A stretch of 64,000 bases of DNA. It comes from an uncultured Bdellovibrionales bacterium (GTDB taxonomy: Bacteria; Patescibacteriota; Minisyncoccia; Moranbacterales; UBA1568). Under the pieces are notes generated by a model. The model saw only the letters and a list, made by a program, of their open reading frames with translations. It made no database searches and was not told the DNA's origin. The stretch covers positions 42,942-106,941 of the forward strand of contig CAZGXN010000003.1 in assembly GCA_964530135.1 (NCBI GenBank), given 5' to 3'. Below are positions 2,097 through 61,695 of this stretch, one piece after another (the stretch's first letter is position 1; each line of letters opens with the position of its first letter). Made by a program: the position numbers and the translations under genes.

Positions 2097-2202
2097 AGAT
2101 TTTTCTTTTCCTCCTCATTATACACTGCTTTGTGAGAAGTTAAAGAAAGGACATCATCCCTGCATCGTGCTATGCGCCCCTGGAGTTTCTTTATCGGCGG
2201 GG

Positions 2203-3267
2203 CTAGAAATCCCAACTGCCATTCATGCTAGTGGATTGGGTATAGTTGACCACGGTAGTTTCGAAGAAATTCCCCTTATCACTATTGGTATCCTGGAGTC
2301 GATCGAGGTGTTTGTAGGGATTGGTTACGGCTTCTGGATAAAGCGGGTTGATGTTGAGCATAGCGAGGCGATTATTGGCGAGCCACCGAGTATACCCCTC
2401 AGTCGTCTCTCCATTGATGCCAGGGATACGATTGCCGAGGATGTGCTTTCCCCATTCGATCTCTTGTTTTACCGCCTCAGCCATCATGTCTCGGATCAGT
2501 GTTTCGTCATAGAGGGCGGGGAATTCTCGGCGAATTTCGCGGAGGATATTGGCAAAGATAGTAACATGGGTGAGCTCATCGCGTCGGATATATGCGATCA
2601 TCCGGCCGGTTGCCAGCATTTTCATATGATCGACGAGCGTGTCAAAGAACGCAAAGCCATTGTAGAAATAGAGTGATTCGAGGAGAAAGTTAGCAACAAT
2701 CCCGCGGAAAAAAGTCGTATCGGAAGGCTGATCAACGAAATCTTGGTAGATCTGGCCGATGTATTTGTTGCGCTCGAGGAGCGTTTTGTCAGTGCGCCAG
2801 AAGTAGTAGATCTCATCGCGTTCATTGCTGTCCACCACGGATTCGAGGATGGTGGCATAGGATTGGGAATGAATTGCTTCCTGATAGGCCTGGATTGCCA
2901 AGACGAGATTGACTTCCGGTGAGGTAACATAGTCAGCAAAATGCGGGAGATTGACCGTCTGGATCGAGTCGAGAAAAATCAAGAAAGAGAGAATCCCTTT
3001 GTAGGCAGTCTGTTCCTCTGGGGTGAGATCAGCATGAAACATGCGTGCATCATCCTTCAGACCAGAGACTTTTTCTGGCACCCAAAAATTCCCGATCATC
3101 ACCTGATAGAGGGATTTGGCCCAAGGATATTTTGTAGCATTGAGATTGAAGAGCCCGGTAGTCGTCCCCTTGATGATAGTTCGGACCCCGACAGCATCAT
3201 CACCCTTTGGGTTAAACATGAGGTTGCGTCGCATTGCTTCGGTCATAGCGGTGGGATAGAGAATCAA
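2203..3267 (-). CDS. nrdB: Ribonucleotide reductase class I beta (small) subunit.
   Basis: 354 aa with ferritin-like di-iron and radical-site regions (FLIFLDSIQ, EAIHSQSYA, VANFLLESLYFYNGFAFF). It sits immediately downstream of nrdA on the same strand. Confidence 0.85.
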   Translation of the reverse strand: MILYPTAMTEAMRRNLMFNPKGDDAVGVRTIIKGTTTGLFNLNATKYPWAKSLYQVMIGNFWVPEKVSGLKDDARMFHADLTPEEQTAYKGILSFLIFLDSIQTVNLPHFADYVTSPEVNLVLAIQAYQEAIHSQSYATILESVVDSNERDEIYYFWRTDKTLLERNKYIGQIYQDFVDQPSDTTFFRGIVANFLLESLYFYNGFAFFDTLVDHMKMLATGRMIAYIRRDELTHVTIFANILREIRREFPALYDETLIRDMMAEAVKQEIEWGKHILGNRIPGINGETTEGYTRWLANNRLAMLNINPLYPEAVTNPYKHLDRLQDTNSDKGNFFETTVVNYTQSTSMNGSWDF

Positions 3268-3337
3268 GAATTGAGGTACTCTTTGTTAAATCCAGAGTTT
3301 TGACGATTGCATCCTTCTGGATGCCGCACATTTTCTG

Positions 3338-5950
3338 CTAGCCACTACAGCTGACGCAGCCATCATTGACTTCGGCTGAGAGACTCCGGACATAGTAGAC
3401 GGTCTTGATGCCTTCTTCCCAGGCCTTCATGTAGTAGCTGTAGAGTTGGGCGGGGCTGACGCGCGACGGATCAATCATCCACTCAAAGGAAACGGACTGG
3501 TCAATCCAGGGATAGATAACAGCCATCATATCGATGACATCGCTCATATTCATGTTGATGTACTCTTTGTAGTACCAGAAGTTCTCCTTTGAGAGCTTGG
3601 GGGCGACTCGAAGCGTTGGAGCAGAGAGATTGGTTTCGACAAAGAATTTTTTGTAGATCGGGAGGAGTGCGGCAGTGGTACCGACGACACCTGCGGTTGA
3701 AGTGTTGGGTGCCGGAGCCGTATGATAGGCGAAACGGACACCAAAGTCCTGCATATCGGCAAAGAGTTGTTTCCATTCGGCCGCGAAGGGAGTGTTCTTT
3801 TCAAACCATTCACTGGAACGCCCGAGGAGCCGTCCTTGGGAATATTCACTCCCGGGGTAGAGCTCGTAGGTACCACGCTCTTTGGCTAGGTCGATAGAGG
3901 CCCGATATGTGTGGTAGGTGTAGCGTTCAAAGAGTCGGTCTACTTCTTTGCGCGCTTCCTCGGTGTCATAGGCGAGCTGGTGGGTGGCCAAGTATTCGGC
4001 CAGTCCGAGATAGCCGAGACCGACACTGCGGTAACGCAGAGAAGTTCGCTTTGCTTCCTGAATGGGGTAATAGTTGAGAGTGATGACATTGTCGAGGACA
4101 CGCATCACAATCGGAAAGACTTCGGCGATGACCGCGGGTTCGAATACAGTCGCGATGTTGATAGAGGCCAGGTTGCAAACAACGAGGTCGCCAGGCTCAT
4201 AACGAATGACAATTTTTCCATCTTCAATTACTTCCTCGATGAATTTGGTATCCGAAGTGTTTTGGCAAATCTCAGTACAAAGCTGTGTCGAATAGATATT
4301 TCCCGCATGTTTATTGGGATTGAGACGATTTACCGTATCACGAAAGAAAACATACGGCATACCTGTTTCAACCGTTGATTTGAGAAATTTCTTGAAAATC
4401 TCCTTGGCTTTTACGGTTTTTCGCATTTCTATTCGAGTATCTTGTTCGAGAGTGAGATAAAATTCCTCGAATGCTTTGTCGAAAGAGTCCTGAAGTCGTT
4501 TCCCATAGAGCTTCTCGATTTCGTGTGGATCAAACAGAGTGATGTCAGCGTCGTCTTTTAAGCGCTGCATGAAAAGGTCGGGGATAGAGACAGCCGGAAA
4601 GATGTCAAACGCTTTGGATCGGATATCGCCAGTCTCTGTCTGGAGATCGAGAAAGTCATAGATATCGAGATGCCAGATGTCGAGTGTGACGGAAATGGCT
4701 CCAAGTCGTGAGCCGAGCTGGTTGACGGCAACAGCGGTATCATTGATGACTTTGACCCAAGGATTCACTCCGCCAGACATACCTTTGACGCCGCGGATCG
4801 AGCTCCCCCGCGAACGGATATTGCCGAGGTATACACCAACGCCGCCGCCAAACTTGGAAATCTGAGCCATGTTCTCGATGGCATGATAGATGGCGCGCAA
4901 GTCATCATTGACATTAATTTTGAAGCAGCTCGATAGCTGATTGTGATTGGTGCGCGCATTGAGAAGGGTCGGCGTCGGGAGTGAGATGCGCTGTTCGGAA
5001 CAGTGTTTATAGATCTGGAGAGCAAAAGCCAATCGATGTTCAGGCTTTTCTGGAATCGCGAGAAATAATGCGACTGACATGTACATTTCTTGCGGCAGTT
5101 CCTTGATAATCTTGTTGGGATTGAGGAGGTAGCGTTTGATGAAGGAGACGACCGTTGTGTATTCGTAGCTGGTGTCGGTATCTCGTGAGAGGTGTCGTCC
5201 GGCTTCGAGGATATCTTCAGCGGAATAGTATTGATAGAAATCTTTGTAGTACAGTCCACGCTCGATATAATCATCAAAGAGTTTTTTGTAGGCTTCAGCC
5301 GAATAGATATCTTTTTGTTCCAAACCGCGGTTTTTGATCGCCTTTTTGTAGAGGTCGCCCAAAAGGATGCGGGCGGCGATATTTTGCCAAAAAATATTTT
5401 CTACTGTAACGAGATCAATGCAGGTTTTGACGAGGAGCTTGCTTAAGTCCGAGGTTTTGATTTCATCAACAATATTTTTTTTGAAGGCTTCGATGAGGTC
5501 TTCAAAAGTGCAGAGCGTTTCGTAGCCGCTGGCAGCTCGGTCGAACACTGCTTTGATTTTCTGGATACTAAACAGCTCCTTCGATCCATCCGCCTTGGTA
5601 ACCTTCATCGAGTGATGCTCGAACTGTTCGACCAATTTCTCTTTGCGCTCATCGCGTTTTTCGTTCTGTTTCTCTCGGTAGAGGATATAGGCTTTGGCGA
5701 TTTCATACTTCCCCTCCTTCATCAGGTGTTTTTCGACGAGATCTTGGATGGTTTCGACAGATGGAATATGAGTTTCGCTGCTGCCACAAGACAGAATCAA
5801 ATCTTCGATGACCGCATCAGTCATCTTGGGGATAAATTCCTTTTCAGTTTCTCCCGTGGCATCGCACGCGAGCGTGATGGCAGTCTCGATACGGGAGCGA
5901 TCAAAGGCAACCACCTCACCGTCCCGTCGTTTGATCTGATTCAGAGTCAT
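3338..5950 (-). CDS. nrdA: Ribonucleotide reductase class Ia alpha (large) subunit with an N-terminal ATP-cone.
   Basis: 870 aa. The ATP-cone is IKRRDGEVVAFDRSRIETAI. The catalytic core contains CNLASINI. The plus-strand ORFs inside this span are low-complexity shadows. Confidence 0.9.
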   Translation of the reverse strand: MTLNQIKRRDGEVVAFDRSRIETAITLACDATGETEKEFIPKMTDAVIEDLILSCGSSETHIPSVETIQDLVEKHLMKEGKYEIAKAYILYREKQNEKRDERKEKLVEQFEHHSMKVTKADGSKELFSIQKIKAVFDRAASGYETLCTFEDLIEAFKKNIVDEIKTSDLSKLLVKTCIDLVTVENIFWQNIAARILLGDLYKKAIKNRGLEQKDIYSAEAYKKLFDDYIERGLYYKDFYQYYSAEDILEAGRHLSRDTDTSYEYTTVVSFIKRYLLNPNKIIKELPQEMYMSVALFLAIPEKPEHRLAFALQIYKHCSEQRISLPTPTLLNARTNHNQLSSCFKINVNDDLRAIYHAIENMAQISKFGGGVGVYLGNIRSRGSSIRGVKGMSGGVNPWVKVINDTAVAVNQLGSRLGAISVTLDIWHLDIYDFLDLQTETGDIRSKAFDIFPAVSIPDLFMQRLKDDADITLFDPHEIEKLYGKRLQDSFDKAFEEFYLTLEQDTRIEMRKTVKAKEIFKKFLKSTVETGMPYVFFRDTVNRLNPNKHAGNIYSTQLCTEICQNTSDTKFIEEVIEDGKIVIRYEPGDLVVCNLASINIATVFEPAVIAEVFPIVMRVLDNVITLNYYPIQEAKRTSLRYRSVGLGYLGLAEYLATHQLAYDTEEARKEVDRLFERYTYHTYRASIDLAKERGTYELYPGSEYSQGRLLGRSSEWFEKNTPFAAEWKQLFADMQDFGVRFAYHTAPAPNTSTAGVVGTTAALLPIYKKFFVETNLSAPTLRVAPKLSKENFWYYKEYINMNMSDVIDMMAVIYPWIDQSVSFEWMIDPSRVSPAQLYSYYMKAWEEGIKTVYYVRSLSAEVNDGCVSCSG

Positions 5951-9244: not shown

Positions 9245-9328
9245 GCCCAGGTGGCGGAATTGGTATACGCGCTAGCTTGAGGTGCTAGTTCCCGCAAGGG
9301 ATTGGAGGTTCGAGTCCTCTCTTGGGCA
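9245..9328 (+). tRNA. tRNA-Leu (anticodon GAG), type II with a long variable arm.
   Basis: Acceptor stem GCCCAGG/CTTGGGC. Anticodon arm CTAGC-TTGAGGT-GCTAG. Variable arm TCCCGCAAGGGAT. T-loop TTCGAGT. Confidence 0.8.
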
Positions 9329-9400
9329 CAAAGGAATGCAGCTGGTACATGATTGCCAGCTTTCTTTTTTGTCAGAGTCTCAGTACCATAGGGAAAGCCA

Positions 9401-9474
9401 GGGCAGTTAGCTCAGTTGGTTAGAGCACCTCGTTTACACCGAGGGGGTCAGAGGTTCGAGTCCTCTACTGCCCA
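9401..9474 (+). tRNA. tRNA-Val (anticodon TAC).
   Basis: Acceptor stem GGGCAGT/ACTGCCC. Anticodon arm CCTCG-TTTACAC-CGAGG. T-arm AGAGG-TTCGAGT-CCTCT. Confidence 0.85.
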
Positions 9475-9624
9475 CAGTGAATGTATTCACTATAGAGCAG
9501 GCCAACTGCTTGGCCTGCGTGAGGACGAGAAAGCCAGAGCGATGTCCGAGTTTTCTTTTCAGAGAAAGGCGAAGACCGCGAGGCGGGGTCGAGAGATTTT
9601 CCCGTCAGGGAAAATACTCGTGAC

Positions 9625-9644
9625 CGAGTCCTCTACTGCCCACA
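9625..9644 (+). repeat. 20-bp direct repeat of the tRNA-Val 3' end (CGAGTCCTCTACTGCCCACA), 168 bp downstream of the tRNA copy at 9457-9476. This looks like an att-site-like remnant.
   Basis: The 20-mer is identical at 9457-9476 and 9625-9644. The segment between them has hairpins GTGAAT-GT-ATTCAC, GCAGGCCAA-CTGC-TTGGCCTGC and TTTTCCC-GTCA-GGGAAAA. Confidence 0.6.
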
Positions 9645-9807
9645 CGAAAAAAAGCGTTTCAAAGAGTTGCTTTTTTCGGTAGTTTCGGGATAATGGGAGA
9701 TGTTTCGCTGGAGTCTTTCCGCGCTCAGGCTTCGGATGGACAGCATGTATAGAAACATCAGAAAAAAGAAGAATATTGTTGGGCCCTACGAAGTTTTAAC
9801 GAAGCAG

Positions 9808-9879
9808 GCCGGGGTAGCTCAGTGGTAGAGCGAAGGACTGAAAATCCTTGCGTCGGCAGTTCAATTCTGCCCCCCGGCA
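9808..9879 (+). tRNA. tRNA-Phe (anticodon GAA).
   Basis: Acceptor stem GCCGGGG/CCCCGGC. Anticodon arm AAGGA-CTGAAAA-TCCTT. T-arm GGCAG-TTCAATT-CTGCC. Confidence 0.85.
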
Positions 9880-9981
9880 CACACCAAAACACATCTCAAT
9901 AAAGATGAGATGGAAAAAGTAGAGGTGGTGTGCGTGTGCCCCAGCTGAGTTCCTGTGGTATAAAAATGATGGAGAGAGATC

Positions 9982-10054
9982 GGGTCCGTAGCTCAGCGGT
10001 TAGAGCAGGCGACTCATAATCGCTTGGTCGATGGTTCGATTCCATCCGGACCCA
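9982..10054 (+). tRNA. tRNA-Met (anticodon CAT). Elongator-type, or possibly a tRNA-Ile2 lysidine substrate. It is not initiator-like.
   Basis: Acceptor stem GGGTCCG/CGGACCC. Anticodon arm GGCGA-CTCATAA-TCGCT, with no GGG/CCC anticodon stem. T-arm GATGG-TTCGATT-CCATC. Confidence 0.8.
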
Positions 10055-10076
10055 CAGGCCAGGTAAAATCAGATCC

Positions 10077-10148
10077 GCGGGTATCGTATAGCGGCTATTA
10101 TGTGACCTTGCCAAGGTCAAGATACGGGTTCGACTCCCGTTACCCGCT
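10077..10148 (+). tRNA. tRNA-Gly (anticodon GCC).
   Basis: Acceptor stem GCGGGTA/TACCCGC. Anticodon arm TGACC-TTGCCAA-GGTCA. T-arm ACGGG-TTCGACT-CCCGT. Confidence 0.8.
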
Positions 10149-10517
10149 CAGCTAAAGAAAAAGGATTGGTCTTGCACTGATCTTTTTTTCTTTTGTTTGG
10201 ATTGGGAACGGGAGGCGAACGGGAAAGGGGTCGGGAAAACGGGAGTTTTCCTGTAAGCGGAGAGCAGCGAGTTTACGAAGCGTTGAGAACCGAGGGGTTC
10301 TTAAAGAGCGAAGCGAGTGAGATTCTCCCGTTAACTGCTCCAATAAAAATGAGGCTCATTAGAGTCTTATTTTTTATTACGTCTAAAGTCGTCGAATTAA
10401 TGGTGGACAAGGCCATTGTGAACTGATATGTTTTTTTTTGTACCTTAACAACCCCGAAAGGAACTCTATCGGAGAAAATCCATCTAATTTTGAGTAATAC
10501 TTCTTTGTAAACTCGGA

Positions 10518-16923: not shown

Positions 16924-16994
16924 GGTCCGATGGCCGAGCGGTTAGGCAAGGGTCTGCAAAACCCTGAACAGCGGTTCAACTCCGCTTCGGACCT
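16924..16994 (+). tRNA. tRNA-Cys (anticodon GCA).
   Basis: Acceptor stem GGTCCGA/TCGGACC. Anticodon arm AGGGT-CTGCAAA-ACCCT. T-arm AGCGG-TTCAACT-CCGCT. Confidence 0.75.
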
Positions 16995-17008
16995 CAGACA
17001 TATCCCAC

Positions 17009-17091
17009 GCTGGGGTGGCGGAATGGTATACGCACGACACTTAAAATGTTGCGCCCGTAAGGGCTTGTGGGTTCGAGTCCCACCCCCGGCA
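17009..17091 (+). tRNA. tRNA-Leu (anticodon TAA), type II.
   Basis: Acceptor stem GCTGGGG/CCCCGGC with a U3:G70 wobble. Anticodon arm CGACA-CTTAAAA-TGTTG. Long variable arm CGCCCGTAAGGGCTTGT. T-loop TTCGAGT. Confidence 0.8.
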
Positions 17092-17157
17092 CAGACCGAG
17101 ACCCTGTTGTATCAACCAGGATATTCGCTCAGAGTCTTGAAATAAAACAAGGATTTT

Positions 17158-22367: not shown

Positions 22368-22439
22368 AGTGCCCCCACCAGGAATCGAACCCAGATCTCT
22401 CCCTTAGGACGGGATAGCTCTATCCATTGAGCTACAGGG
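22368..22439 (-). tRNA. Probable tRNA-Arg (anticodon CCT), with several G-U pairs or mismatches in its stems.
   Basis: The reverse complement reads GCCCCTG-TA-GCTC-AATGGATA-GAGC-T-ATCCC-GTCCTAA-GGGAG-...CTGGG-TTCGATT-CCTGG-TGGGGGC-A. The anticodon loop has T33 and A37 flanking CCT. Confidence 0.5.
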
Positions 22440-22685
22440 GCGATTGGTTACTGTAGAGGAAAACCATCACTCTGGCAAGACATTGTACCGACGCCTGTAT
22501 CCGTATTGTAACAGAGGATATCTGTGGATAACTGGAGGATAAGTCGTAAAAACTCATCCAATAGGTACCTAAATGGCCCATATAAACAAAATGGAGTGTC
22601 GAGGCTATTCGAGTACCATAAAATCACAACAAGGCTCTACGGTGATATAGTCGTAGAAAAATAAGCAAAGGATCCCTATGAAGTG

Positions 22686-22758
22686 TGGACCATACCGGAT
22701 TCGAACCGGTCACCCCTTCCATGCCATGGAAGTGCTCTACCAAATGAGCTAATGGCCC
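22686..22758 (-). tRNA. tRNA-Ala (anticodon GGC) with the G3:U70 identity pair.
   Basis: The reverse complement reads GGGCCAT TAGCTCATTTGGTAGAGCA CTTCC-ATGGCAT-GGAAG ...ACCGG-TTCGAAT-CCGGT ATGGTCC A. Confidence 0.8.
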
Positions 22759-26906: not shown

Positions 26907-27037
26907 TTGGTAGAAAGGTGTGAAGATTTTCTTTTCTCGCCACACAACTTGTTGTGTGTTTGAGTGATTGTTTGTACTGTAGTTGTTTTGCTCCAGAGGC
27001 CAAGGATCATCTCTGTCGGACCGTCTGAAAATGAGAG

Positions 27038-27111
27038 TGGGCTTGCCCAGATTCGAACTGGGGACCTCTACAATGTCAATGTAGCGCTCTAACCAACTGA
27101 GCTACAAGCCC
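27038..27111 (-). tRNA. tRNA-Val (anticodon GAC).
   Basis: The reverse complement reads GGGCTTG TA GCTC AGTTGGTTA GAGC G CTACA-TTGACAT-TGTAG AGGTC CCCAG-TTCGAAT-CTGGG CAAGCCC A. Confidence 0.85.
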
Positions 27112-56358: not shown

Positions 56359-57510
56359 GTGAGTGGAGATACTGTAAAAAACATCCTTTTCTTTCCAATG
56401 CTTGTCTCTGAAAGTGGGACAGGTGAGGCTATGACGCCAGAAGTTTCGGAAGAATTATGGATGAAACTTCGAAATCTATCTCCTAATAAGCGAGACATTC
56501 TTGTCTGTCGAGAATTGCCCCAGAAGCTCCTGATTCTCAAGGAGAAGTTAAATTTGGATGAAAAAGCTATAGGCCGTATCAGTTTGGTGATTCGGAAGAT
56601 TTTTTTTAACGAACTTGATCTTGCTGGTGCTGAGGCTAAGATTGCTTCGATGCTTGGGGCGGGTGGAGCAGAGAATCCGAACCATGCTAAGGCTATTGTT
56701 GAGTTTATTAAAAAAGAAATACTAACCATTAAGCCAGTAAAAGAAGTCGTGCCAGATGAATCTTTGTCAAGTGAGCCAGTTATCAAAACCGCGCGGCTGC
56801 CGCTCCTCAAGGCGATGAGTGAGTACCCGCATTTGTCAGAACAACTCTTGACCAGAGAAAAGATCAAATTGAAATCATCGACGGAACCGGTGCGACCATC
56901 GCTTGGGAATTGGCTGAAGAGCTATCGTGAAGAGCTCGGTATCGGGTTCCATGAGCCAGTCAAGCGGGGAAATTTTCTCTTTCAATCCCAGAATGGCAAG
57001 CGTCTGTCCAATGAGGAGCGAGCGAGATTCAATCTCATCTTGAAGTCGGTCGAAGAGGAATTTCCGCTTGACATCGATACGGAACGCCAGGCAATAGTCT
57101 TTCCATCGTCTGGCGATGTGGCGATGGAGCTGACTCAGATCCGAACCAATCCATCCCAGCCTACTCCAAACAGGATGATTCGAGCACGGGGTCTGTCGAC
57201 CAGTCTACCGGCCTCTGAAACTACACCAGAAACATCTTCACCAACCGCCTTTCAGTCCTTCAAACCACTGTTTGCGAAATCAGTATCGCCGGAGAAGAAT
57301 GTTTCAGGTGAGACATTACATTTCTCTACAGGGCATGTGTTGCCAGCGGAACGCGAGGCGGGCGCTCCAACATCCGATGGGAGCGAGGCACTCCGTCAGA
57401 TGCAGCATCCGACGCAGGGTATTCGGCGTGAACCCAATCCAGCGCTTTCTCGGAGTCCGTACTCGATCCGTCCGCTCCGTCCTCGGAGTGGGGACAATGA
57501 AAACGCCTAG
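56359..57510 (+). CDS. Hypothetical soluble protein inside the T4SS-like operon, with a Pro/Ser/Thr-rich C-terminus.
   Basis: 383 aa. It starts 20 nt after the VirB6-like stop. No motif was recognised. Confidence 0.5.
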   Translation: MSGDTVKNILFFPMLVSESGTGEAMTPEVSEELWMKLRNLSPNKRDILVCRELPQKLLILKEKLNLDEKAIGRISLVIRKIFFNELDLAGAEAKIASMLGAGGAENPNHAKAIVEFIKKEILTIKPVKEVVPDESLSSEPVIKTARLPLLKAMSEYPHLSEQLLTREKIKLKSSTEPVRPSLGNWLKSYREELGIGFHEPVKRGNFLFQSQNGKRLSNEERARFNLILKSVEEEFPLDIDTERQAIVFPSSGDVAMELTQIRTNPSQPTPNRMIRARGLSTSLPASETTPETSSPTAFQSFKPLFAKSVSPEKNVSGETLHFSTGHVLPAEREAGAPTSDGSEALRQMQHPTQGIRREPNPALSRSPYSIRPLRPRSGDNENA

Positions 57511-57603: not shown

Positions 57604-57999
57604 ATGATGTTCAGCGTCCCCCAGTTTATTGATGTTGAAGACAAAATTGCTGGCCCACTCACTTGGCGTCAGTTGTTGTGGATGATCGGGATGGGGATTC
57701 TTCTCCTCGTCATATACAATACTATCGGTACAGCTGGTTTTTTGATTGTGGCGGTCCCGATTGTCTTACTGTTTTGTGCCCTAGCCTTTTATCGGCCACA
57801 GGGTCAACCGCTCATTGTGTTTCTCTTCCATGGATTTACCTATTTCTTCCGGCCGAAAATTGCTGTCTGGGAGCGCCCAATAGCCCGCCGCCAGGCAGCT
57901 CCTGAGGTTGAAGCTGCTCCCGTGAAAGCAGCGGCGAAAGCCAAACAGCTTTCACCAGAAGCTCTCCGCGATTTGGCTCGGCTCATGGACACCCACTAG
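57604..57999 (+). CDS. PrgI/VirB3-like small two-TM T4SS protein.
   Basis: 131 aa. MMFSVPQFIDVEDKIAGPLTWRQLLWM is followed by two TM helices and a basic tail. It sits immediately upstream of VirB4, as VirB3/PrgI does. Confidence 0.5.
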   Translation: MMFSVPQFIDVEDKIAGPLTWRQLLWMIGMGILLLVIYNTIGTAGFLIVAVPIVLLFCALAFYRPQGQPLIVFLFHGFTYFFRPKIAVWERPIARRQAAPEVEAAPVKAAAKAKQLSPEALRDLARLMDTH

Positions 58000-58008
58000 T
58001 TTTCATGT

Positions 58009-58683
58009 ATGGAATTTCTCTCTAAGAAAAAATCTGGCAGTTTGAGTACACAGCGATATGTCGATGTCGAAGAGCTGCGTGATGGCGTTCTCGTTCTCAA
58101 AACCGGAGCGCTGCGGGCGGTACTCCTTGTCTCATCGATTAATTTTGATCTGAAATCGAGCGAAGAACAGGATGCGATTATTTCTCAGTATCAGAATTTC
58201 CTCAATTCACTGGATTTTCCCATTCAAATTGTCGTGCAGTCTCGCCGGTTCAATATCGATCCGTATATCGAACTCCTCCGTGGGAAAGAGGCACAGCAGG
58301 CCAATGAGCTCCTTCGATTCCAGATGAAAGAGTACCAAAGCTTTATCAGGAACCTGACGGATGTTTCGAATATTATGTCGAAGTATTTTTATGTTGTTGT
58401 ACCATTTTCACCAGTTGAAAATGTCGAGACGGGATTTTTCGGAAAAATGGGAGACATTTTCAATCAGCGGAAAACCGTCGGCCTCAAAAATGAATTGTTT
58501 GATACCTACCGAACACAGATCATGCAGCGCGTCGAACATATTGTCGCGGGTCTTTCTCCGATGGGAATCCGCGCAACAGCCCTGGGCACCGAAGAATTGA
58601 TCGAGCTCCTCTACAATAGTTATAATCCATCACTCTTTGCATCAACGATCGTGAAAAATGTCGAGGCGATTGAGCTCCAGTAA
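58009..58683 (+). CDS. VirB4-family N-terminal domain encoded as a separate ORF (the N-terminal piece of a split VirB4).
   Basis: 224 aa. VDVEELRDGVLVLKTGALRAVLLVSSINFDLKSSEEQDAIISQYQNFLNSL resembles the N-terminus of Gram-positive VirB4 proteins (TraE/PrgJ). It ends with TAA at 58681-58683. Confidence 0.55.
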   Translation: MEFLSKKKSGSLSTQRYVDVEELRDGVLVLKTGALRAVLLVSSINFDLKSSEEQDAIISQYQNFLNSLDFPIQIVVQSRRFNIDPYIELLRGKEAQQANELLRFQMKEYQSFIRNLTDVSNIMSKYFYVVVPFSPVENVETGFFGKMGDIFNQRKTVGLKNELFDTYRTQIMQRVEHIVAGLSPMGIRATALGTEELIELLYNSYNPSLFASTIVKNVEAIELQ

Positions 58684-58687
58684 ACTT

Positions 58688-60919
58688 ATGGGACGAGAAC
58701 TGATTATTTTTGACCGGCCAATCAAGAAAGTATCCGTGGTTGATCCGATGAATATCGCGACCCCTGGTCTTGGTGAGCTTTCTGTACCGCCTCGCTCACG
58801 TGGCCAAGCGGGAGCCGCCCTGCCATCCGCGCGTGCCACAAATGCCGATGGAGTCCGGCCACCCCAGCCAGATGATACTGTGCTGCCGACCGACATCCAC
58901 TCAGAGAAAGTGGCATCAGCTCCAGCGAGTCCAGTTTCGCGTCGAGCGCCAGAGCCACGCGAGACAGTCTCAGCTCCTGATCGAGGAGGAAGGCTTGCCC
59001 CACCAGAAAAGAATCGCGCCGTCTGGGCAGAGGAGGTTGTGGCCCAGGCTTTTCCAGTTGATAATCCATCGACTATCAAGTCGGAGAAAAAGAGTTTTCT
59101 TGGGAGTCTTTTTGGAAAAAAATCCCAGACCCCAGTTTTGGATACAAATCGGGAAACAGAACAGCTCTATCAGAAGGGTCTGGCAACGATCCGTGATCTC
59201 ATTGCTCCGCCAGCGATTCGAGTGAGTCCAGCGACCATGCAGATCGGCGATGTCGTCGCTCGGACACTGTTCATCATCGCGTACCCGCGGTTTCTTTCGA
59301 CCAATTGGTTTTCTCCGATTATCAATATCGACTTTCCGATGGATACGGCGCTGTTCATTCATCCGATAGATACAGCTGAAATCCTGAAACAACTCCGTAA
59401 ATCCGCGACCCAGGTGCAATCACAGATGAATATCGAAATTGAGGAGGGGAAGATCCGCGACCCAGTACTTGAGGCGGCGCTTCAAAATATTGAAGAATTG
59501 CGTGATCGTCTCCAGCAAGGGACAGAAAAGTTCTTTCGCTTTGGTCTCTATATGACGCTCTATGGGGCAGATGAGAAAGATCTCTCCCAAAAAGTGCAGT
59601 CGATTGAAGCGATTCTTGAGGCGCAGCTCGTGTATACCAAACCCGCTGTCTTGCGAATGGATGTTGGGTTTGCGTCGACTCGACCGCTGGCCAATGATGC
59701 ACTGGATGTGGCCAATAACCTCAACACTGAGCCGCTTTCGACTACTTTCCCCTTTGTCTCTTCAGATCTCTCCTCCAATGAGGGTATCCTGTATGGCATC
59801 AACCGGCATAACAATTCGCTTATTCTGTTTGATCGGTTCAAGATGGAAAATGCCAATATGGTGGTCTTTGCAAAGTCTGGTGCGGGTAAGAGCTATACGG
59901 TAAAACTTGAAGTTTTGCGGGCGCTCATGCTCGATACAAGCGTTATTATTATTGATCCAGAAAATGAATATAAGCATCTCTGTGAGACGGTCGGTGGAGC
60001 CTTTCTGAAAATTTCTCTCAACTCGGATATTCATCTCAATCCGTTTGATATGCCGAAAGTCGGTGCGGAAGAAGAGTCAGATGGCGTTTTCCGAAACACT
60101 ATTGCCAATCTCATCGGACTTCTCCACCTCATGCTCGGGACTTTATCAGCCGAAGAAGATTCGATCTTGGACCAGGCTATCCGTGAGGCGTATGCGATTC
60201 GTGATATTCACGAAGATTCAAATTTCGGCGCATTGCTTCCGAATTCCTTTCCAACAATGTCTGATCTGCATGCAGTCCTGAAGAATATGGAGGGTGCGGA
60301 TTCGATTGCTGCTCGACTGCGACGCTATACAGAGGGTATTTTCTCGGGTTTTCTGAATGAGCAGACGAATATCGATACGGATAACCAGCTTGTTGTCTTC
60401 AATATTCGAGATCTGGAAGAGGAACTCCGTCCGATTGCGATGTATATCATCCTTCAGTACATCTGGAATGATATTCGCTCAAAGCTTCGCCAACGCATCA
60501 TCGTCGTCGATGAGGCCTGGATCATGATGCAAAATGAGGATGCAGCCTCGTTCCTATTTGGCATCGCCAAGCGCTGCCGCAAGTACTACACTGGTCTTAC
60601 GACGATCACTCAGGACATCAGCGACTTTATGTCTTCGCGCTACGGCAAGCCGATTATCACCAACTCTTCGATGCAGCTGCTCCTCCGTCAATCACCCGCA
60701 TCGATTGACTATATCACCGAGACTTTTTACTTGACGGATCATGAGAAGTTTCTTCTGCTCGAGTCGAATGTGGGGGAAGGAATTTTCTTTGCCGGGACAA
60801 AACACGCCGCTATAAAAGTCATTGCTTCATATAGTGAAGATCAGATTATCACTTCGGACCCGCGTCAGCTTCTCGAAATTGAAGAAGCGAAGCGCGACTT
60901 CGATTCCAACAACCCTTAA
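58688..60919 (+). CDS. VirB4/TrbE/CagE-family T4SS ATPase (central and C-terminal ATPase domains) with a roughly 130-aa Pro/Ala/Ser/Arg-rich low-complexity N-terminal segment. The track ORF starts at 58658; the ATG at 58688 lies 4 nt after the upstream stop.
   Basis: Walker A is FAKSGAGKSYTVK. Walker B is RIIVVDEAWIMM. The middle region QIGDVVARTLFIIAYPRFLSTNWFSPIIN is VirB4-like. The reading frame differs from that of 58009..58683. Confidence 0.8.
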   Translation: MGRELIIFDRPIKKVSVVDPMNIATPGLGELSVPPRSRGQAGAALPSARATNADGVRPPQPDDTVLPTDIHSEKVASAPASPVSRRAPEPRETVSAPDRGGRLAPPEKNRAVWAEEVVAQAFPVDNPSTIKSEKKSFLGSLFGKKSQTPVLDTNRETEQLYQKGLATIRDLIAPPAIRVSPATMQIGDVVARTLFIIAYPRFLSTNWFSPIINIDFPMDTALFIHPIDTAEILKQLRKSATQVQSQMNIEIEEGKIRDPVLEAALQNIEELRDRLQQGTEKFFRFGLYMTLYGADEKDLSQKVQSIEAILEAQLVYTKPAVLRMDVGFASTRPLANDALDVANNLNTEPLSTTFPFVSSDLSSNEGILYGINRHNNSLILFDRFKMENANMVVFAKSGAGKSYTVKLEVLRALMLDTSVIIIDPENEYKHLCETVGGAFLKISLNSDIHLNPFDMPKVGAEEESDGVFRNTIANLIGLLHLMLGTLSAEEDSILDQAIREAYAIRDIHEDSNFGALLPNSFPTMSDLHAVLKNMEGADSIAARLRRYTEGIFSGFLNEQTNIDTDNQLVVFNIRDLEEELRPIAMYIILQYIWNDIRSKLRQRIIVVDEAWIMMQNEDAASFLFGIAKRCRKYYTGLTTITQDISDFMSSRYGKPIITNSSMQLLLRQSPASIDYITETFYLTDHEKFLLLESNVGEGIFFAGTKHAAIKVIASYSEDQIITSDPRQLLEIEEAKRDFDSNNP

Positions 60920-60924
60920 ACGCT

Positions 60925-61695
60925 ATGGCCGAGGATATTGATTCGGCGTTTGAACAGCTCCACCAGAGCAAATGGATGCAACTTCGGAACGCTACTCGTC
61001 TGGCTTTTGAACACCGGAAGAGAGTGGCGGCTGGTGATTTGTCGGTCTTCATTCTGCCATTAGCTCTGGCCATGGCTAAAGACGGACTTTTGGACTTCAT
61101 TCCGTTTATCGGGTTATTTTTCGGGCTTTTTATCACTACATACCTCTTTATTTTCATGTGGGGTCGGGGTCGGTGGATACTGCGCATCCTCTTCTTCTTT
61201 GTGGCTACTGTCGGTAATCTTCCTTTCATCAAACTCTTGCCTTTTGATACGATCAGCGTTCTCTTCGCTTATTTCTTGGCACGCAAAGATGTGGCAAAGG
61301 CCAAAGAGAAATTGGAGAAAGTTAATCAGGTGATACCGCGGCTGGCGGATGATCTCCGCGGTGTGGCGCGCCAGCGTGCGCGGGCCCAAGAGGCGGCCCA
61401 AGAGGCAGAGGCATCCGCTGCCCAAAGCGCTGCCCAGATGGATACAGCATCTCGCTCGCCTGAACGGTTAGTGGGAGCTGCTCCAGTACTCGCTGTCCCT
61501 CGGGGACAGGTAATACCTTCTCGTTCGGACCAGGCGACTGCGCTTCGTCATAGTCAAAGCGCGGTTAACGAAGCTACCTTGAGAATACAAGCTGCGGGAC
61601 GTCAATTGGCTCAGAGTTCTCTGGCGTATACAGCGGGTATGCGCCAGTCTGGAGCACCAAGAGGGGTTTCGGAAAAGCGGCAACGAGCGGTTTAA
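60925..61695 (+). CDS. Membrane protein in the T4SS-like operon (3 to 4 TM) with an Ala/Gln-rich coiled-coil C-terminus.
   Basis: 256 aa. It starts 6 nt after the VirB4 stop. TM helices are LSVFILPLALAMA, IPFIGLFFGLFITTYLFIFMW and ILFFFVATVGNLPFI. Confidence 0.5.
   Translation: MAEDIDSAFEQLHQSKWMQLRNATRLAFEHRKRVAAGDLSVFILPLALAMAKDGLLDFIPFIGLFFGLFITTYLFIFMWGRGRWILRILFFFVATVGNLPFIKLLPFDTISVLFAYFLARKDVAKAKEKLEKVNQVIPRLADDLRGVARQRARAQEAAQEAEASAAQSAAQMDTASRSPERLVGAAPVLAVPRGQVIPSRSDQATALRHSQSAVNEATLRIQAAGRQLAQSSLAYTAGMRQSGAPRGVSEKRQRAV

Follow-up and report, generated by a model that had tools for sequence, protein, structure and literature searches.

A probable two-gene VirB4 with a low-complexity extension in a Moranbacteria-type type IV secretion locus

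Results

Two adjacent reading frames together correspond to one VirB4

We analysed a 64,000-nucleotide (nt) stretch of DNA (hereafter the window) from contig CAZGXN010000003.1 of assembly GCA_964530135.1, in which VirB4, the ATPase of a type IV secretion system (T4SS), is spread over two consecutive open reading frames (ORFs). Positions are numbered over the whole window, and L001 to L095 denote comparison loci from other genomes. An earlier interpretation made from the letters of the window (the sequence-only reading) had proposed that the first ORF is a VirB4-like N-terminal part ending with TAA, and that the second starts in another frame 4 nt past that stop, opens with a low-complexity peptide and then resumes the middle and ATPase domains of VirB4. 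It offered two explanations, a genuinely two-piece VirB4 or a frameshift, either a sequencing error or programmed, within an expanded linker. The ORF list, the raw sequence and NCBIfam matches all agreed with the description of the first frame (ORF1, frame 1), whose stop is the TAA at 58681-58683. It is followed by ACTT and by the ATG at 58688, from which the second frame (ORF2), in the +1 frame relative to ORF1, is open through 60919. The low-complexity peptide quoted for the opening of ORF2, PPRSRGQAGAALPSARATNADGVRPPQPDD...APEPRETVSAPDRGGRLAPPEKNR, was likewise present. The features of the locus are collected in Table 1.

ORF1 matched the N-terminal part of several VirB4 models, namely NF045975 (E-value 7e-10), NF045971 (positions 5-151 of 752, E-value 3e-6) and TIGR00929. 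It also aligned with positions 27-99 of the 201-position TrsD/TraD model NF041427 (30.4 bits, E-value 3e-7), below the family cut-off of 200 bits; on this alignment ORF1 is a distant TrsD/TraD relative lying outside the NF041427 subfamily. A Pfam scan of ORF1 gave no match, and PF26593 ('TraC-like') was seen solely in the precomputed annotations of a protein identical to ORF1. A sequence search of the PDB with ORF1 returned chance matches only (E-values of 0.4 and above). With 224 amino acids (aa), homology to the VirB4 N-terminus and a position directly upstream of virB4, ORF1 has the properties of a stand-alone N-terminal piece (N-piece).

ORF2, the C-terminal piece (C-piece), took up the VirB4 match as the sequence-only reading had said: its residues 156-705 aligned with positions 176-730 of 752 of NF045971, a CD1110-family VirB4 model (E-value 3.5e-106), and the score of 356.2 bits exceeded the family cut-off of 325. 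In addition, ORF2 matched the TraG-type P-loop domain PF19044 (E-value 8e-31), its ATPase domain matched the solved VirB4 C-terminal domain PDB 4AG5 (E-value 4.8e-50), both Walker motifs were intact and the VirB4 core was 79-95% identical to that of relatives. N-terminal and ATPase domains thus did not lie on a single polypeptide, since model positions 5-151 of NF045971 fell on ORF1 and 176-730 on ORF2, and the two products cover one VirB4 between them. ATP hydrolysis, hexamer formation and a requirement for secretion are putative properties of the ORF2 product. Ahead of its first VirB4-homologous residue, ORF2 carried 155 further residues. The '130-aa' Pro/Ala-rich insertion reported for this place is real as a stretch and approximate in size, the Ala/Pro-rich part spanning residues 37-132 of these 155.

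Table 1. Features of the VirB4 locus, in window numbering
Feature	Position	Strand	Evidence
PrgI/TcpE-family small membrane protein (VirB3 analogue)	57604..57999	+	Pfam PF12666 PrgI, E-value 7e-11; PF12648 TcpE, E-value 6e-6
ORF1, VirB4 N-piece, TrsD-like/'TraC-like' (PF26593), 224 aa	58009..58683	+	NCBIfam N-terminal VirB4 matches
Spacer ACTT, 4 nt, from N-piece TAA to C-piece ATG	58684..58687	+	Raw sequence
ORF2, VirB4 C-piece, 743 aa: head, predicted disordered extension, second half of N-terminal domain, RecA-like ATPase	58688..60919	+	NF045971, PF19044, PDB 4AG5
Conserved head of C-piece, aa 1-36, MGRELIIFDRPIKKVSVVDPMNIATPGLGELSVPPR	58688..58795	+	Low pN in four close relatives
Hydrophobic motif ELIIFDRP inside C-piece head	58697-58720	+	
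Ala/Pro/Ser/Arg-rich low-complexity segment, predicted disordered, aa 37-132	58796..59083	+	Composition, AlphaFold2 pLDDT, pN, indels
Conserved, predicted helical island NRAVWAEEVVAQAFP within the low-complexity segment	59012-59056	+	Short helix in AlphaFold2
Conserved basic/hydrophobic motif KKSFLGSLFGKK, aa 134-145	59087..59122	+	Comparison with short C-pieces and fused forms
VirB4 core, aa 156-743: second half of N-terminal domain and ATPase domain	59153..60919	+	NCBIfam, PDB match, Walker motifs
Walker A, KSGAGKSYT, aa 396-404	59873-59899	+	
Walker B, RIIVVDEAW, aa 603-611	60494-60520	+	

The split is conserved among Patescibacteria

The frames of ORF1 and ORF2 overlap by 26 nt (58655-58680), and one single-nucleotide indel in this overlap would fuse them. 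Because a single sequence allows such a fusion, the concern about a frameshift was legitimate and had to be settled with comparative data. No homopolymer was found in the window sequence at 58655-58687. We fetched 80 species-level genomes with an ORF1 profile; both parts were present in 79 of them, and in every one of these 79 Patescibacteria loci the gene was split, with the N-piece adjoining the C-piece. The C-piece lay in frame 1, 0 or 2 relative to the N-piece in 32, 24 and 24 loci, respectively (80 loci, including the extra locus L004 from an identity look-up). In L088 the two genes share one frame with an in-frame TAG between them, an arrangement that no indel could fuse. In a search of 5.8 billion proteins, the 120 best ORF1 homologues were all stand-alone, measured 217-246 aa and reached down to 65% identity. 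Similarly, a 50%-identity representative library gave 2,427 ORF1 matches, of which the best 150 comprised 149 proteins of 104-443 aa and one of 898 aa. Finally, the identical gene pair occurred in at least three separately named assemblies. With these data, the chance that an indel from sequencing or assembly interrupted a continuous VirB4 gene is practically nil, and the two-piece alternative of the sequence-only reading is the one borne out.

A programmed +1 ribosomal frameshift or a read-through of the stop would also deliver a single, fused VirB4. The short distance of 4 nt, the overlapping frames and the natural fused proteins of Berkelbacteria speak for such a mechanism, but the frame relation on which it would depend is not maintained. 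In the five closest relatives (L086, L087, L088, L089 and L004) the spacer measures 2, 4, 3, 5 and 4 nt, respectively, flanked by a conserved stop and by the conserved ATGGGACG with its ATG, and across the species loci of Patescibacteria the next ATG lies anywhere from -14 to 448 nt from the N-piece stop. No conserved slippery motif was found. The locus thus lacks the conserved frame relation and shift site that characterise programmed-frameshift genes such as prfB and dnaX, and we regard this mechanism as very improbable.

At the upper end of this range, four loci (L019, L037, L050 and L057) carried an AT-rich, partly repetitive non-coding gap of 219-448 nt between the VirB4 genes, exemplified by the intergenic repeat-like sequence 'AAAATTGAAAAATCAAAATGGAAAATG' in L050; the gene pair is therefore not always tightly coupled.

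A gene that is split, with low-complexity sequence at the break, might also be the decaying remnant of a once-intact VirB4. Both parts were strongly conserved, however: among close relatives the proportion of nonsynonymous differences (pN) was 0.07 for ORF1 and 0.035 for the VirB4 core, with the synonymous proportion (pS) saturated, and these values point to strong purifying selection on both genes. Moreover, Walker A and B were intact, the arrangement was universal in the phylum and a TrsD homologue has been reported as essential in a cultivated relative, so that a pseudogene is scarcely credible. Altogether, the comparative and conservation data exclude sequencing error, programmed frameshift and pseudogene, and refute the frameshift explanation of the sequence-only reading in both its forms.

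Two observations concern the comparison genomes themselves. In L024 (Moranbacteria metagenome-assembled genome (MAG) CAIOMK010000059.1), the N-piece is interrupted at codon 126 by an in-frame TAG (position 4876), whereas a Ser codon stands there in all relatives (NIMSKFFY); either a nonsense mutation or an error of the MAG assembly is the probable cause. In addition, a Moranbacteria-like T4SS locus (N-piece 50-69% identical) is present in many 'MAG TPA_asm' records (L007-L010, L013-L015, L017, L025, L026, L036, L038-L040 and others) that are titled uncultured Bdellovibrionales, Micavibrio, Gammaproteobacteria or Saccharibacteria, and whose organism labels look unreliable.

A clade-specific extension opens the C-piece

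Residues 37-132 of ORF2 contained 31% Ala plus Pro and 17% hydrophobic residues, versus 37% hydrophobic residues in the core. The GC content of the stretch was 0.61 versus 0.48 and, by ORF2 codon position, 0.74, 0.62 and 0.47 at the first, second and third positions. Ala, Pro, Arg and Gly codons produce precisely an excess at positions 1 and 2. Foreign GC-rich DNA was ruled out as the source of the stretch, given that the excess affected positions 1 and 2 and not position 3. Within the low-complexity region the only tandem repeat was a trivial one of 2 x 12 nt inside the FG motif, and nothing pointed to a mobile element or to expanded repeats.

The length of sequence before the conserved core was 17-440 aa in the 120 best ORF2 homologues and 1-309 aa (median about 22) in the 80 species loci. 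Extensions of at least 78 aa occurred in only 15 of these loci, all from the Moranbacteria clade nearest the window. The comparison with orthologues that the sequence-only reading had called for thus gave a divided answer: the split is conserved, and the long extension is confined to the clade of the window. On this distribution, the split is ancient and general and the extension a clade-specific addition. An insertion of low-complexity sequence as the cause of the split was rejected, as most split relatives have none.

Along the extension, conservation was uneven. In four close relatives, pN was 0-0.06 at a pS of 0.5-0.7 over ORF2 residues 1-25, and it reached 0.34-0.57 in the middle part, which also showed many in-frame indels and evolves fast. 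The head motif (RELIIFDRP, with the variants DRIVFRDNKGP, GITLKD and SIIFKD) opened the C-piece clade-wide, always 2-11 nt after the N-piece stop. Two conserved islands lay further on, NRAVWAEEVVAQAFP, with a short predicted helix, and KKSFLGSLFGKK, the counterpart of the N-terminal end of short C-pieces (MFGxxKNKK) and of SEIFGKLG in fused proteins. The AlphaFold2 confidence score (predicted local distance difference test, pLDDT) was below 50 over residues 1-152, except for a short helix at VWAEEVVAQ, and the extension is predicted to form a flexible, disordered N-terminal part of the C-piece.

The low-complexity region could instead be untranslated, with a C-piece that starts near its core and with 58688-59100 as a GC-rich intergenic spacer. 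In favour of this, the NCBI C-piece of one relative (L005, 606 aa) begins only past the region, the GC-rich stretch is also open in several other frames, and in many relatives just 13-40 residues of the C-piece precede the core, with long non-coding gaps in some. Nevertheless, the strong constraint on the first 25 codons from the ATG at 58688, followed by highly variable residues, the clade-wide head at its fixed place past the N-piece stop, a frame kept open through extensions of 78-309 aa in 15 species despite indels, and a GC excess at codon positions 1 and 2 of the ORF2 frame only, all speak for a coding region. The untranslated spacer is accordingly an unlikely account. Because its head is conserved after the ATG, its frame is kept open and its GC excess falls on codon positions 1 and 2, the Pro/Ala-rich stretch is predicted to be translated.

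An alternative in-frame ATG further upstream (58658), from which the second ORF would overlap ORF1 by 26 nt, was rejected as its start: it arises incidentally from conserved Asn-Val codons of ORF1 and falls out of frame where the spacer of relatives measures 2, 3 or 5 nt. The comparison points to the ATG at 58688 as the true start of ORF2.

Further GC-rich (0.56-0.67), Ala/Pro/Arg/Gln-rich low-complexity tails were observed at 57300-57507, 57900-57996 and 61250-61692, at the ends of a 383-aa protein, PrgI and a 256-aa membrane protein encoded in this T4SS row. They seem to be common at the locus in general and not a peculiarity of VirB4.

The position of the break differs between lineages

Many stand-alone N-pieces carried a hydrophobic (P)VV/VI/II motif about 17 residues after a conserved YNP motif, and in tailed N-pieces this motif was followed by a Pro/Gln/Ala/Thr-rich tail of up to 230 aa. 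L094 and L095 had N-pieces of 391 and 432 aa with the next gene directly behind, which was a C-piece starting near the core in L094 and a truncated, unannotated 112-aa ORF in L095. In Berkelbacteria, by comparison, continuous fused proteins of 820-877 aa were found (about 25 clusters, on contigs up to 629 kb), ordered as N-domain, hydrophobic motif, low-complexity linker, FG-like motif and core. The 578-aa Berkelbacteria 'C-piece' P0433 (L092) was rejected as a truncated gene call of a fused 868-aa ORF, and similar calls of 578-582 aa include P0418 (582 aa). Specifically, the public 578-aa 'TraC' call of L092 spans 3001-4737, where the intact fused ORF spans 2131..4737.

In the window, ORF1 ends exactly where the hydrophobic motif would be expected to start, and ORF2 opens with such a motif. 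In a MAFFT alignment the ORF2 head was paired with the (P)VV/VI motif found behind the N-domain on the same chain in fused and tailed forms; 8 columns were inserted around the break. Homology between such short motifs is plausible. These data could reflect an old linker module of Patescibacteria VirB4, made of the low-complexity part and its two flanking motifs, within which the gene break moved; we consider the case for and against this idea evenly balanced. The Moranbacteria clade would then have the break before the hydrophobic motif, with the module on the C-piece; other lineages (L094, L095 and many N-piece representatives of 250-443 aa) would have it after the low-complexity tail, with the module on the N-piece; and Berkelbacteria (L092, L093) would have no break in the module. 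If so, VirB4 would have undergone repeated fission or fusion at a flexible hinge, and the conserved head would be a functional docking peptide able to work in cis or in trans.

Predicted structure and assembly of the two pieces

We modelled an artificial concatenation of ORF1 and ORF2 with AlphaFold2, from an alignment that included natural fused homologues. The model was confident for ORF1 residues 10-215 (pLDDT 80-98) and for ORF2 from residue 153. Its best structural match was the full-length TrwK/VirB4 of R388 (8rtd_O, E-value 2.8e-29; 978 alignment columns, TM-score 0.70 normalised to the 799-residue target), and as modelled the two pieces reproduce the fold of a full-length VirB4. In this model the gene break would fall inside the N-terminal domain, between two sub-domains.

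The best explanation as a whole, to which we give a probability of roughly 90%, is a genuine two-gene VirB4 of a Patescibacteria (Moranbacteria-type) T4SS. ORF1, the TrsD-like/'TraC-like' product, would supply the first half of the VirB4 N-terminal domain, and ORF2 the second half together with the P-loop ATPase. Because the genes are ordered prgI, N-piece and C-piece, with only 4 nt between the last two, co-transcription and translational coupling are probable; no Shine-Dalgarno-like sequence was found within 20 nt upstream of the ATG at 58688. From the model, non-covalent association of the two polypeptides into one unit shaped like VirB4 is most likely. The head and the KKSFLGSLFGKK motif may be short peptides that dock onto a partner within the secretion apparatus, candidates being PrgI/VirB3, another membrane component or a neighbouring hexamer subunit, and the low-complexity part would be a mere tether of free length.

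Some points weigh against the two-gene explanation or its details. It draws on sequence comparison and predicted structures, and the placement of the pieces comes from an artificial concatenation with fused homologues in the alignment, which is not independent proof of a heterodimer. Synonymous sites were saturated even in the closest relatives (pS 0.6-0.9), so that pN values are compared between segments only and yield no ratio of nonsynonymous to synonymous rates (dN/dS). The NCBI call in L005 (7151-8971) leaves out the low-complexity region, giving 606 instead of 762 aa. Finally, AlphaFold2 did not dock the head motif confidently in the concatenated model, where the head and the whole extension had pLDDT below 50, and in a natural fused Berkelbacteria protein the linker including the motif was also below 50; because neither model showed confident docking, the docking role is without structural support.

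Genomic context of the locus

The stop codon of the prgI gene lies 9 nt ahead of the ORF1 ATG, and a prgI gene also precedes the N-piece in L001, L004, L086-L089, L091, L093 and L095. The same gene row contains further T4SS genes, encoding a LysM/CHAP hydrolase and large membrane proteins, and a neighbouring 695-aa protein gave a weak CD3337/EF1877 match (E-value 1e-3). VirB4 is thus accompanied at its locus by other T4SS components, among them a VirB3 analogue, a cell-wall hydrolase and a putative VirB6-like protein. Elsewhere in the window there are ten transfer RNA (tRNA) genes (9245-10149, 16924-17092, 22369-22758 and 27037-27111), five of which form one cluster (Leu, Val, Phe, Met and Gly), an ordinary chromosomal context.

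Discussion

The two-gene arrangement described here is already known: published work shows it to be the rule in the ultra-small Patescibacteria, and it also occurs in Firmicutes. TrsD has been identified as the most abundant T4SS component of Patescibacteria and described as a remote homologue of the VirB4 N-terminus that adjoins virB4; 2,272 homologues were found, 1,664 of them associated with VirB4, and the homologue of Ca. Southlakia epibionticum was listed as essential (Quinonero-Coronel et al. 2025, Microb Genom, PMC12102498). We cite this paper for the TrsD homology because the main text of Guglielmini et al. 2014 (PMC4027160) does not name TrsD. The protein sequences of ORF1 and ORF2 were already in public databases. 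The Ca. Southlakia epibionticum ML1 system, which is genetically tractable, is said to go back to Wang et al. in 2023.

For biology at large, little changes, the TrsD plus VirB4 pair of Patescibacteria having been published and its genes being reportedly essential to a cultivated relative for epibiotic growth. The clade-specific disordered extension and the variable position of the break appear to be a small, undescribed detail. In the main text of PMC12102498, the terms 'disordered', 'low-complexity' and 'linker' are absent and 'fused' or 'fusion' is used only for VirB3-VirB4; the paper therefore appears to give no account of the variable extension, the flanking motifs, TrsD-VirB4 fusions or differing break positions. 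Their interest lies chiefly in annotation and in structural studies of Patescibacteria T4SSs. The gene pair should not be flagged as a frameshifted pseudogene, and gene callers disagree on the start of the C-piece (606 vs 762 aa in L005) and sometimes truncate fused genes (578 vs 868 aa in L092). For structural studies, the natural break shows a place where the N-terminal domain of VirB4 tolerates being cut, and the conserved head and the 'FLGSLFGKK' motif, which flank a disordered tether of free length, are candidate interaction peptides.

Among known systems, the TrsD plus VirB4 pairs of Patescibacteria are the direct counterpart: the gene for a stand-alone homologue of the VirB4 N-terminus immediately precedes virB4 and neighbours PrgI/VirB3 in a chromosomal, monoderm-type (MPF-FATA-like) locus, of which the window locus is one case. 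The staphylococcal conjugative plasmids pGO1/pSK41, with TrsD/TraD and TrsE/TraE (NF041427), also have a two-gene VirB4 with a separate small N-piece. Similarly, plasmids of Pontibacillus and Geobacillus carry a row of PrgI, a 274- or 318-aa protein and a 621- or 636-aa CD1110-family VirB4 or DUF87 ATPase. In two such plasmids from cultured Firmicutes (L090, NZ_CP062975.1, Pontibacillus; L091, NZ_AP022558.1, Geobacillus) the genes overlap by 11-14 nt, and the N-piece is annotated merely as 'hypothetical protein'. Unlike the window locus, these staphylococcal and Bacillales systems are plasmid conjugation machines, and no long Pro/Ala-rich extension is evident from their gene lengths.

Single-chain VirB4 proteins, such as TrwK of R388 (PDB 7O41/8RTD) and the CD1110-family VirB4 (about 750 aa), share the overall fold when the two pieces are modelled together, the Walker motifs and the partnership with VirB3. 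In contrast to the window pair, they consist of one polypeptide with an unbroken N-terminal domain and no disordered segment at that position, and the sequence identity of TrwK to the window VirB4 is about 13%. Lastly, the fused TraC-like-VirB4 proteins of Berkelbacteria (820-877 aa; P0391-P0417, L092, L093) have the same order of modules, including the (P)VI motif and 'SEIFGKLG'. They differ in being one continuous ORF, whereas in the window the N-domain is separated from the hydrophobic motif by a stop, 4 nt and an ATG.

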